Assembly (NCBI RefSeq): GCF_003334405.1
Contig: NZ_QOWM01000029.1
Length of the DNA stretch: 27,599 bases
Direction: 5' to 3' (one strand)
Origin: Escherichia coli
GTDB lineage: Bacteria; Pseudomonadota; Gammaproteobacteria; Enterobacterales; Enterobacteriaceae
The translations under genes were made by a program, and so were the position numbers. This document shows, piece by piece, positions 2,521 to 4,250 of the stretch. How positions within the stretch are numbered: the first letter of the stretch is position 1; every line of letters begins with the position of its first letter. The notes under the pieces are model-generated. The model did no database searches. It was not told the origin of the DNA and saw nothing but the letters and a program-made list of their open reading frames with translations.

Positions 2521-2883
2521 TTGGCGCATGCGCTGAATCACTCATCTCATCCTCAAGCAGTTGTCGGTACTGAAGTGGCACACCGATTGGGAGAGATTAG
2601 AGATCGGAAGCCGGGAAATCAAAGTTATCATGTCAGTGGACTGACTTTATTGACGGCGACTAATTCCTTGTGGAACACAGTTTACATGGAAAGAGTGGTT
2701 GATGCTCTGAAACGTAAGGGCATGAAAATTAATGCTCAACTATTATCGCATTTATCACCATTAGGTTGGGAACACATCAATCTGACAGGAGATTATATCT
2801 GGAAAAACAACCGAATACCGACTTCAGGTAAGTTTTGTCGTTTGAGACCAGTTAAGATCGGCAAGGTCAAAAAACAACCTTAA
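2521..2883 (+). pseudogene. tnpA: Tn3-family transposase (TnpA) 3' fragment
   Basis: Translation contains the Tn3-family TnpA C-terminal signature SPLGWEHINLTGDYIW. An in-frame stop lies immediately upstream at 2518-2520, so only the C-terminal ~120 codons remain. The stop codon lies inside a GGGG-ended terminal repeat. Confidence 0.7.
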
Positions 2884-2903
2884 CGAATGGAAGGGACTTC
2901 CCC
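2866..2903 (-). repeat. Putative Tn3-family terminal inverted repeat (outer end CCCC at 2900-2903 on the plus strand)
   Basis: Reverse complement reads GGGGAAGTCCCTTCCATTCGTTAAGG, which has the GGGG outer end and CGTTAAG inner motif typical of Tn3-family IRs. Exact extent uncertain. Confidence 0.4.
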
Positions 2904-4250
2904 TAGATATGCACCTGATTAACTCTTGTGCAATTATGGGGTAAACATAGCCCAGAGGGATTCGTTATGACCATCACTACTATCGGTATCGATCTTGCTA
3001 AAAATGTGTTCGCTGTTCATGGTGTTGACCAAAATGGCAAAACCATTCTGGTGAAATCCAGAGTAACCCGCGCAGCTCTTCCCGGGCTGATTGCAAGTTT
3101 ACCGCCCTGTGTTATCGGGATGGAGGCGTGCTCCGGGGCTCATTACTGGGCAAGACTGTTTCTGCAATATGGTCATGAGCCGCGTCTGATGGCCGCTAAA
3201 TTTGTATCTCCATACCGCATGGCCGGTAAATCAGGGAAAAATGATGCAGCTGATGCTCAGGCTATCTGCGAAGCGGTTCGTCGCCCACATATGCGGTTTG
3301 TTCCAGTTAAGGACGAGAGCCAGCAGGCGATGCAGTGTCAGCATCGTACCCGACAGGGCTTTATCGAAGAGAAAACAGCAATATATAATCGTCTTCGAGG
3401 GTTGATATCAGAATTCGGCGTCATCGCCTCACAAAGTACAGATGCCCTGCGGCACATGGTTTCTGCGCAGAAGAGCTCTTTACCTCTTCAGGTTCAGCAA
3501 TGTGTTGATGATTTACTGGAACACGTTGATCGCATTGAAGCTAACATCACTGAATATGACCGAATTTTGTCCCGCATAGCCAAAACAGATCACCGCAGTC
3601 AGCGGCTGATGAAACTAAAAGGAGTTGGTCCCACAACTGCCTGTGCTCTGGTTGCCTGTATCGGTAATGCACATGATTTTAAAAATGGACGGCAACTGGC
3701 GGCCTGGCTGGGGTTGACTCCATCACAATACAGCAGCGGCGGAAAGTCGAAGTTAGGCAGGATAACAAAAACCGGTGATTCGTATCTGCGAACGCTTCTG
3801 GTACAGGGGGCTCGTTCAGTACTGATTGGCGCTGAGAAAAGGACTGACTCATTCAGTCGTTGGGTCTGTTCACTGGTCGAACGCAGAGGATACTGGCGCG
3901 CTGTTGTGGCCATCGCCGCCAAAAATGCAAGGCTGTGCTGGGCATCATTGCATTACGGTGATGATTTTAGGCTGTATTCAGCCAGCTAAAGCAGGCAGCA
4001 ACCGTATGACCATCTGATCTGCAACTCGTTGATGATAAAGGGTTAGACCCCGTGAGGTATATCTGATTATTGTACAGGATATACGTATCGGCTTAACGAA
4101 CAAGAGCCTCACGCGCGTCTTTCATCAGGGTCCGAATCGATAACGATTCATTATGACCGTTTATAGCACCGCAGTCTCTCCCCTTTATTTTTAACTGTTG
4201 TGCAGACAAACCATAAATACCGACGTTGACTGTTCGGGGAAGCCCTTATA
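2904..4250 (+). mobile_element. IS110/IS1111-family insertion sequence (IS4321/IS5075-like); boundaries approximate
   Basis: Single DEDD-type transposase ORF flanked by about 60 bp of 5' and 260 bp of 3' non-coding DNA. Left edge abuts the Tn3-type IR. Similar GGGAAG(T/C)CC motifs occur near both proposed ends (about 2892 and 4240). Confidence 0.45.
2967..3989 (+). CDS. IS110-family (DEDD) transposase
   Basis: 340-aa protein starting MTITTIGIDLAKNVF (N-terminal DEDD/RuvC-like domain) with a C-terminal region containing LKGVGPTTACALVACIGN and LGLTPSQYSSGGK, both characteristic of IS110/IS1111 transposases. Confidence 0.85.
   Translation: MTITTIGIDLAKNVFAVHGVDQNGKTILVKSRVTRAALPGLIASLPPCVIGMEACSGAHYWARLFLQYGHEPRLMAAKFVSPYRMAGKSGKNDAADAQAICEAVRRPHMRFVPVKDESQQAMQCQHRTRQGFIEEKTAIYNRLRGLISEFGVIASQSTDALRHMVSAQKSSLPLQVQQCVDDLLEHVDRIEANITEYDRILSRIAKTDHRSQRLMKLKGVGPTTACALVACIGNAHDFKNGRQLAAWLGLTPSQYSSGGKSKLGRITKTGDSYLRTLLVQGARSVLIGAEKRTDSFSRWVCSLVERRGYWRAVVAIAAKNARLCWASLHYGDDFRLYSAS

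Follow-up and report, generated by a model that had tools for sequence, protein, structure and literature searches.

The window analysed here is a 27,599-nucleotide (nt) stretch of Escherichia coli DNA (contig NZ_QOWM01000029.1), and it carries a complete insertion sequence (IS) of 1366 bp at positions 2885-4250 on the plus strand. By its gene, ends and layout this element is a member of the IS1111 group of the IS110 family and belongs to the clade of IS1618, ISSm1 and IS5708. It is inserted between bp 32 and 33 of a 38-bp terminal repeat that belongs to a TnEc1-type Tn3-family remnant, and its 3′ untranslated tail encodes a predicted RNA with one loop matching this repeat and another matching the ends of the IS. 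From these comparisons, we consider it highly probable that the IS entered the repeat by RNA-guided, site-specific recombination.

The IS interrupts the terminal repeat of a Tn3-family remnant

To define the limits of the element, both flanks were joined and the joined sequence was searched for uninterrupted sites. More than 1000 plasmids carried an uninterrupted site, many of them annotated with a 'Tn3-like element TnEc1 family transposase', and comparison of interrupted with uninterrupted repeats showed that removal of the IS restores the target exactly, with no target-site duplication. One G is ambiguous between the two sides, and limits of 2886-4251 are equally possible. Our first limits (2881-4256), taken from the block conserved in three copies, were dropped when the uninterrupted sites showed TAAC and GTACAA to be conserved target. 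Across the three IS contexts that we aligned, the flanks resembled one another without being identical, as is characteristic of a target-specific element.

The sequence to the left of the IS is a TnEc1-type Tn3-family tnpA 3′ remnant (2581-2884, plus strand), lying in an open reading frame (ORF) at 2521-2883 whose stop codon, TAA at 2881-2883, falls inside the terminal repeat. The remnant matched the last 76 positions (879-954) of the Tn3 transposase profile NF033527 (E value 3e-25) and was 93 % identical at the nt level to the end of the complete TnEc1-family tnpA in locus L004. Since nucleotide homology to the TnEc1-type sequence of L004 is confined to 2581-2885, this tnpA piece is a short 3′ remnant; a preliminary description of this DNA had already recognized a Tn3-family tnpA remnant.

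The uninterrupted repeats in loci L004 and L005 read CCTTAACGTACAAT... / CCTTAACGTACAATAAT..., while the window reads CCTTAAC-[IS]-GTACAATAAT where these loci have CCTTAACGTACAATAAT... without a break. Uninterrupted copies elsewhere read ...CCTTAACGTACAATAATTTTCGATATCCAAACTGACCCC, with a fuller stretch of ...AAAAAACAACCTTAACGTACAATAATTTTCGATATCCAAACTGACCCC, and on the other strand the site is the classic 38-bp Tn3-family repeat GGGGTCAGTTTGGATATCGAAAATTATTGTAC^GTTAAG, in which ^ marks the position of the IS. Because these copies run CTTAAC straight into the sequence of the right flank, a real 38-bp repeat has been split by the IS, with 6 bp left of the element and 32 bp right of it. The inner 6 bp are CTTAAC at 2879-2884 (GTTAAG on the minus strand, to which the repeat belongs), and the outer 32 bp lie at 4251-4282, reading AGGGTCAGTTTGGATATCGAAAATTATTGTAC on the minus strand and GTACAATAATTTTCGATATCCAAACTGACCC(T) on the top strand. 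The 32-nt outer segment equals TnEc1-type repeats and had one match in the window, with 1 mismatch, against 0 expected; taken together with the many unrelated contexts in which this IS occupies the corresponding position of similar repeats, this excludes chance. Plasmid backbone homology restarts at ~4276-4283, right after the transposon repeat. At position 4282 the outermost base of the repeat is altered (GACCCT versus GACCCC), the terminal G of GGGG being an A and the tip reading AGGG. A transposon end split in this way should no longer serve as a transposition end, and the interrupted Tn3-family end is probably dead for transposition.

The preliminary description had instead taken a GGGG-ended repeat beside the transposase gene as the Tn3 repeat. 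According to this explanation, the IS merely abuts an intact, uninterrupted Tn3-type repeat at 2866-2903, and the 13-mer at 2891-2903 indeed ends in CCCC, 8 bp past the tnpA stop codon. However, the 13-mer accompanies the IS in each of its contexts and has its pairing partner at 4236-4247, being the left subterminal repeat of the IS itself, and the uninterrupted TnEc1 repeats of L004 and L005 run CTTAAC-GTACAATAATTTTCGATATCCAAACTGACCCC, a sequence that the window has on the right side of the IS (4251-4282). These observations refute an abutting repeat, to which we assign next to no probability. The proposed tie between the IS and a Tn3-family terminal repeat was correct in that such a repeat is the target, but the IS lies inside it and does not adjoin it. 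The target-specific insertion that had been suspected was borne out, as relatives are found in other repeat variants with position and orientation unchanged.

The element has the ends and the recombinase of the IS1111 group

Elements of the IS1111 group have a left terminal extension of 7 or 6 bp and a right one of 3 bp, and generate no target duplication (PMC11187229). In the window IS, the left extension is GAATGG (6 bp, 2885-2890), of which GAAT provides most of the predicted −10 hexamer of the circle junction, and it is followed by the left subterminal inverted repeat AAGGGACTTCCCC, a 13-mer ending in CTTCCCC (2891-2903). Its partner, the right subterminal inverted repeat GGGGAAGCCCTT (4236-4247), adjoins the 3-bp right extension ATA (4248-4250), all on the plus strand. 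The two repeats pair at 12 of 13 positions, with one extra base, and agree with the 11-13 bp subterminal repeats of the group. Relatives were collected by plasmid searches and one scan of genome contigs, giving ~80 loci with 98-54 % protein identity; the repeats are conserved across the clade, and the CTTCCCC/GGGGAAG core is kept in relatives down to 54 % protein identity.

As had been proposed, the transposase (recombinase) gene belongs to the IS110 family; it is intact and encodes 340 amino acids (aa) on the plus strand (2967-3989, ATG at 2967 and stop at 3989). The translation scored 348 bits against a cutoff of 140 with NCBIfam NF033542 ('IS110 family RNA-guided transposase') and matched Pfam PF01548 at residues 6-149 (E value 4.5e-15) and PF02371 at residues 212-290 (E value 6.5e-27). 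The protein thus combines the DEDD (RuvC-like) N-terminus with the IS116/IS110/IS902 C-terminus of the IS1111 group, at a length within the ~330-350 aa expected, and it contains GLTPSQYSSG, which corresponds to GL-P----SG, the GL-P----S(T)G motif in the C-terminal domain being a hallmark of the group (PMC11187229). The untranslated DNA is distributed as in the IS1111 group, with the longer non-coding region downstream of the gene: 261 bp at the 3′ side (3990-4250) versus 82 bp at the 5′ side (2885-2966). A 3′ non-coding tail of about 260 bp had been noted before, and its right limit of 4250 proved to be the exact end of the IS, whereas the left limit given for the element, 2866, had to be moved to 2885.

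Two guides in the 3′ tail match the target at the insertion point

In the IS1111 elements ISEc11, ISKpn4, ISPa11 and ISPst6, the 3′ untranslated region encodes a seekRNA (Siddiquee et al. 2024, PMC11187229), and for 93 % of IS1111 elements a bridge RNA has been predicted in the right end (PMC11208160). A guide RNA with loops complementary to the repeat core had likewise been suggested for the 3′ tail of the window IS, and a search for exact matches between the tail and the target located both guides at the insertion point. The 5′ target guide ATTATTGTAC (4066-4075) is complementary to the top strand from +1 to +10, GTACAATAAT (4251-4260), an exact 10/10 match that ends at the insertion point (by our calculation, about 2e-4 such matches are expected by chance in 261 nt). 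The 3′ target guide CTTAACG (4092-4098) equals the top strand from −6 to +1 and would pair with the bottom strand of the left flank, an exact 7/7 match abutting the insertion point (chance expectation about 2e-2 in 261 nt). In IS1111 seekRNAs, the match to the top strand stands 5′ of the match to the bottom strand (PMC11187229), and the same order is observed here.

In relatives, the target guides vary more than any other part of a stretch that is otherwise conserved, and five guide variants follow their targets, with a mean of 15.1 matches out of 17 for cognate pairs and 12.0 out of 17 for non-cognate pairs. In Erwinia oleae (L020), the 5′ guide CAAAACGTAC accompanies the right flank GTACGTTTT and the 3′ guide CTTAGCG accompanies the left flank CTTAGC^G; IS5708-type copies combine the 5′ guide TATCCTAC with the right flank GTAGGATA; and in Rahnella (L022) the 3′ guide TTTACCG accompanies the left flank CTTACC^G. 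The window guides match their site at 17 of 17 positions, the best among the copies examined.

Compensatory changes support a structured RNA on the sense strand

To describe the RNA, we proposed a structure and built a covariance model, R1, from 14 distinct enteric sequences. In the window, R1 had a sole match of 173 bits at 4037-4177 on the plus strand, a core of 141 nt that comprises a 5′ hairpin, a target-binding loop and a donor-binding loop. Overall, R1 yielded 55 full-length matches, one per element, all on the plus strand and downstream of the recombinase gene. In the wide alignment, 97.5 % of cells were paired as compared with 81 % after shuffling and at most 52 % with partners slid, and compensatory changes were present in 16 of the 27 stem pairs. 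RNAalifold predicted the same helices and an extra covarying helix of 3 bp (4062-4064/4103-4105), with covariation in 18 of the 28 predicted pairs. The stems contain G-U pairs, fitting transcription of the plus strand. The single-sequence fold of 3990-4250 gave a z value of only −2.2.

The target-binding domain (4051-4113) has an outer stem (4051-4057/4107-4113), in which 4 of 7 pairs covary, and a cap hairpin (4077-4081/4086-4090), in which all 5 do; between them, the extra 3-bp helix frames a symmetric 12+12-nt guide loop. A TATATC/GATATA hairpin around the 5′ guide, seen in the single-sequence fold, was rejected in favour of this GGATA-NNNN-TATCC cap with its five covarying pairs. Beyond the core, the inverted repeat I4 provides the two arms of a putative closing helix on the plus strand (4028-4042 and 4181-4195), with a duplex energy of −20.6 kcal/mol versus −8.7±2.6 kcal/mol for shuffled sequences. 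In relatives, the arms differ yet remain complementary, the energy being below the control mean in 30/30 and z being −2 or lower in 14/30. According to this modelling, the long-range helix may close the whole RNA, at ~168 nt. Taken together, covariation and strand bias indicate that 4037-4177 is a conserved structured RNA on the sense strand, with the structural features of seekRNAs and bridge RNAs.

The second loop follows the ends of the IS

The donor-binding domain (4114-4172) consists of an outer helix (4115-4117/4170-4172), a cap (4129-4132/4155-4158) and an inner hairpin (4134-4138/4145-4149), the last with strong covariation. Its predicted 3′ guide, TTTATAG (4160-4166), equals positions −6 to −1 of the right end joined to the first left-end base (CTTATA followed by G, with one U-G wobble), and its register relative to the preceding cap hairpin is that of CTTAACG in the target loop. 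The guide tracks the right end in 24 of 25 elements: a right end of ...TTGTA goes with TTGTAG in the RNA in 20/20 relatives, and ...TTATA goes with TTATAG in 4/4 (the window, L009, L029 and L078), while in L048, with a right end of ...TTCTA, a TTCTAG match to its own end was not found in the RNA.

The predicted 5′ donor guide, CTTTCAT (4119-4125), would pair with the top strand of the left end from +3 to +9, ATGGAAG (2887-2893), with one G-U wobble. An exact search of the tail for CCATTC, the reverse complement of the left end, gave no match, and an early register pairing GUCUUU with AGGGAC was dropped for CUUUCAU with ATG(G/A)AAG, which is backed by L043. CTTTCAT is nearly invariant across the family, and L043, the sole relative with the left end GAATAAAAGG, has CTTTTAT, so that the change of ATGAAAG to ATAAAAG at the left end is paralleled by that of CTTTCAT to CTTTTAT in the RNA. 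As one loop reads the target and the other reads the joined IS ends, the predicted RNA corresponds to the definition of a bridge RNA (PMC11208160).

Points against an RNA-guided element and alternative explanations

Several observations weigh against this interpretation. The wide alignment was fitted to R1's own structure, which biases the pair counts towards R1. Within the RNA, the closing cap pair 4077/4090 is a G-G mismatch in the window copy (G4090 in place of C), and the donor outer helix is weak, with 89 % of cells paired, and absent from the RNAalifold prediction. The 5′ donor guide has one covarying relative (L043) and its conservation in its favour, and five beta-proteobacterial relatives have CCTTCAT, with one mismatch to their own left end. 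In L009, L024 and L031 the target has 1-2 mismatches to its own 3′ target guide, and in the beta-proteobacterial relatives pairing of the 5′ target guide does not begin at +1 under the assigned limits and seems to begin at ~+4. The scan with existing covariance models that the preliminary description had called for gave no matching family in Rfam 15, whether for the window at the gathering threshold or for 2800-4350 at E values up to 10, where only noise appeared, which leaves the purpose-built R1 as the sole covariance model that detects the RNA; the Rfam result apparently reflects the lack of a suitable family and speaks neither for nor against the RNA. Finally, production of the RNA, its processing and its binding by the recombinase are predictions by analogy with related elements, and the window copy may or may not be active.

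The matches of the tail to flanks and ends might also be features of the DNA, such as protein-binding sites or remnants of recombination, with the protein picking the target without a functional RNA. The recombinase must in any case also contact the conserved subterminal repeats, and a short seekRNA is enough for ISEc11 movement (PMC11187229), the need for a donor loop thus being unproven in the IS1111 group. Nevertheless, compensatory changes in five helices that tolerate G-U pairs point to selection on the RNA fold, the guides change with the targets while the scaffold stays constant, and RNA dependence has been demonstrated experimentally for four other IS1111-type elements (PMC11187229). 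On balance, we regard an explanation at the DNA level as very improbable and retain RNA guidance.

It is also conceivable that the window copy is a dead relic, structurally complete but inactivated by private changes. It carries the G-G cap mismatch at 4077/4090, has a 2-nt deletion near 4219 when compared with its 97-98 % identical relatives, and diverges by ~2 % from the common copies of E. coli plasmids. On the other hand, the ORF is intact with its conserved motifs, no damage is seen in the four guides, the two ends or the hexamers of the junction promoter, and no other copy examined fits its site better than this one does (17/17). A relic is therefore unlikely in our view, although it deserves more weight than the other alternatives considered.

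A promoter would form at the circle junction

In the integrated element, no sigma-70-like promoter was found, against 2.1 expected. A −35 hexamer, TTGACT, lies at 4226-4231 on the plus strand, and on a circular form of the IS it would stand 17 bp from TAGAAT, made up of 4249-4250 and 2885-2888. The predicted junction promoter TTGACT-17 bp-TAGAAT matches the type reported for the IS1111 group, in which a circle-junction promoter is documented (PMC11187229).

In the mechanism that we propose, circle formation, co-transcription, processing, protein binding and strand exchange are modelled on published work with ISEc11, ISKpn4, ISPa11 and IS621. The IS would be excised as a circle, and its joined ends would form the TTGACT-17 bp-TAGAAT promoter, from which the recombinase gene and the RNA would be transcribed together; processing of the RNA would follow, and the recombinase would bind it. 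The target loop would hold the transposon repeat, with ATTATTGTAC pairing with the top strand of the right flank and CTTAACG with the bottom strand of the left flank, the two meeting at the insertion point. Likewise, the donor loop would hold the joined IS ends, with CTTTCAT pairing with the left end and TTTATAG with the right end and the shared G. Strand exchange beside the G common to donor and target would lead to insertion in one orientation.

Relatives of the IS

Copies 97-98 % identical to the window IS were found in hundreds of E. coli and Klebsiella plasmids with unrelated surroundings, and NCBI annotation labels some relatives IS1618, ISSm1 or IS5708. All copies of the enteric clade that we examined are inserted at bp 32/33 in one orientation, the inner part of the repeat being to their left and the outer part to their right, in several types of Tn3-family repeat. 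All transposases of IS1618, ISSm1, IS5708 and the unnamed 97-98 % identical copies from E. coli IncF plasmids have 340 aa, with identities of 84-98 %. IS1618, ISSm1 and IS5708 share with the window IS the ends GAATGG...ATA, the subterminal repeats, the RNA scaffold and the insertion at bp 32/33 of Tn3-family 38-bp repeats. At the nt level, the window IS is 87 % identical to IS1618, 89 % to ISSm1-like copies and 77 % to IS5708. The usual rule of ISfinder sets 95 % identity as the bound of one IS, and by it the window IS would count as a different IS from these three. The guides differ as well: the 5′ guide of the window IS matches the TnEc1-type repeat over 10 nt, as compared with 8 nt in IS1618 and ISSm1-like copies, while IS5708-type guides fit GTAGGATA-type repeats. 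Literature searches on TnEc1, IS1618, IS5708 and ISSm1 returned annotation-level mentions only.

Some relatives showed further features. In nearly all of the beta-proteobacterial relatives (L038-L090), the left flank is CTAAC^G with a matching CTAACG guide, while the right flanks vary; several of these end in ...TAACCGG..GCGCGGCTTTATCGCGC, resembling a repeated genomic element. In the right flanks of two IS5708-like copies (L029:2484-2520 and L031:2480-2516), GTAGGATATTT is followed by AATGAGATGGTCACTCC, the left end of an IS4321/IS5075-type element, showing two unrelated IS1111-group elements nested ~11 bp apart in one transposon repeat. Second copies of the RNA motif occur upstream of the main element at L081:277-425 and L020:1-113, the latter with guides of the IS5708 type; these second copies are probably parts of adjacent IS copies, or else solo RNA modules.

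Comparison with IS4321/IS5075 and other RNA-guided elements

IS4321 and IS5075, two members of the IS1111 group, are described as targeting the 38-bp repeats of Tn3-family transposons of the Tn21 subgroup with a fixed orientation (Partridge and Hall 2003, as cited in PMC11187229), and the preliminary description had suggested an element of this type. A copy or close variant of IS4321/IS5075 would share the lifestyle of the window IS, with orientation-specific insertion in a 38-bp Tn3-family repeat, subterminal repeats and a 3′ untranslated region, and their tail gives a weak full-length R1 match (16 bits, E value about 0.004). However, transposase identity is only 37 % and a nucleotide-level match was not found; the window IS has 1366 bp versus about 1.33 kb, and their subterminal repeats are of the GGTCACTCCC type. 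Insertion also differs, at bp 22/23 versus 32/33: in the two copies from which we read the position directly (L091 and L092), a Tn21-type repeat is split after bp 22, in the same orientation as that of the window IS and 10 bp further out. By these comparisons, membership in IS4321/IS5075 is refuted and has hardly any probability left, while the functional analogy stands; they form a separate lineage with other ends and subterminal repeats and a shorter element.

The architecture of the RNA may extend to this lineage. The tails of IS4321 and IS5075 showed weak full-length R1 matches of 16 and 15 bits (L091:1765-1908 and L092:1765-1908), with a target-complementary segment, UAAAACGGAA, and the end-matching CUCAU and AUAGAU at the same model positions as in the window RNA. 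In these tails, AAAACGGAA is complementary to the right flank TTCCGTTTT at the model position of the window guide, AUAGAU equals the right end plus the first left-end base, and in IS4321 CUCAU stands opposite the left end ATGAG at the position of the 5′ donor guide. This suggests that a two-loop architecture is common to distant IS1111 lineages.

Published seekRNAs have a short form of 70-100 nt and a long form of 145-170 nt (PMC11187229), and the predicted window RNA resembles them in size, with ~80 nt for the target domain and 5′ hairpin, 141 nt for the core and ~168 nt with the closing helix. Also shared with IS1111 seekRNA systems are natural guide reprogramming in relatives, a promoter at the circle junction only (predicted here), the lack of target duplication and extensions of 6/7 and 3 bp, whereas the target, a Tn3-family repeat, differs from that of ISEc11-type seekRNAs. 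The role of the long form was left open in that work (PMC11187229), while the 3′ half of the window RNA contains segments that covary with the IS ends. The bridge RNA of IS621 and other IS110 elements (Durrant et al. 2024, PMC11208160; Hiraizumi et al. 2024, PMC11208158) likewise has one domain for the target and one for the donor, each with an internal loop, a guide on each strand and a cap hairpin. In contrast to IS621, the window RNA lies in the right end (left in IS621), the guides follow the opposite strand order, long subterminal repeats are present, and the 5′ donor guide begins at +3 of the left end. Donor and target appear to have a single G in common at the crossover, as compared with the CT core of IS621. 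The window RNA has no sequence similarity to that of IS621 and no match in Rfam. Expression of the RNA, its co-purification with the recombinase and its need for movement have been shown for ISEc11, ISKpn4, ISPa11, ISPst6 and IS621 (PMC11187229, PMC11208160).

Plasmid surroundings

The window derives from an enterobacterial plasmid and contains partition and recombinase genes. Right of the IS, a tyrosine recombinase gene (5685-6428, plus strand), a ParA-family partition ATPase gene (6834-7478, minus strand) and a ParM-like gene (7707-8678, plus strand) lie in a backbone ~94 % identical to IncI/IncF plasmids, with homology beginning at ~4276-4283. Two Rfam families scored above their gathering thresholds on the minus strand, AS-pc02 antisense RNA (78 bits, 12506-12646) and a CopA-like antisense RNA (90 bits, 14774-14863), the latter marking an IncFII-type replication control region beside a RepA-like ORF (14936-15805). 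To the left of the tnpA remnant, the sole close match of window positions 1500-2580 among 72,556 plasmids was 68 bp at 87 % identity, and the minus-strand ORFs 634-1176 and 1209-1580 had no NCBIfam match.

Significance

The mechanism and the kind of element are already known, and the window IS is a clear new example without a new mechanism. What is new is its exact anatomy, the finding that the IS1618/ISSm1/IS5708 clade hits bp 32/33 independently of IS4321/IS5075, and the comparative support for an IS1111 donor loop; no paper describing these points was found in a literature search that had ISfinder outside its reach. For annotation, the true limits and the guide RNA location are now available for a widespread element of enterobacterial plasmids that is labelled generically as 'IS110 family'. 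The relatives provide a natural data set of six guide types, nine target types and ~50 elements, in which target guides covary with targets and donor guides with IS ends, and which supports the view of IS1111 long seekRNAs as two-loop bridge RNAs. The concrete guide registers could also serve the reprogramming of a compact recombinase of 340 aa.

Taken as a whole, we slightly favour the combined proposal that the clade is a second IS1111 lineage of Tn3-family repeats, independent of IS4321/IS5075 and reprogrammed through two guides, that the long seekRNA is a full two-loop bridge RNA, and that the two lineages share a niche. If this is true, the 3′ loop reads the left end from +3 to +9 and the right end from −6 to +1, which would explain both the role of the long form in the IS1111 group and the recognition of the IS ends. 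Since two unrelated IS lineages can occupy one repeat at a distance of 10 bp, as the nested copies of L029 and L031 illustrate, RNA-guided hyperparasites that put transposons out of action would have the transposon end as their common niche.

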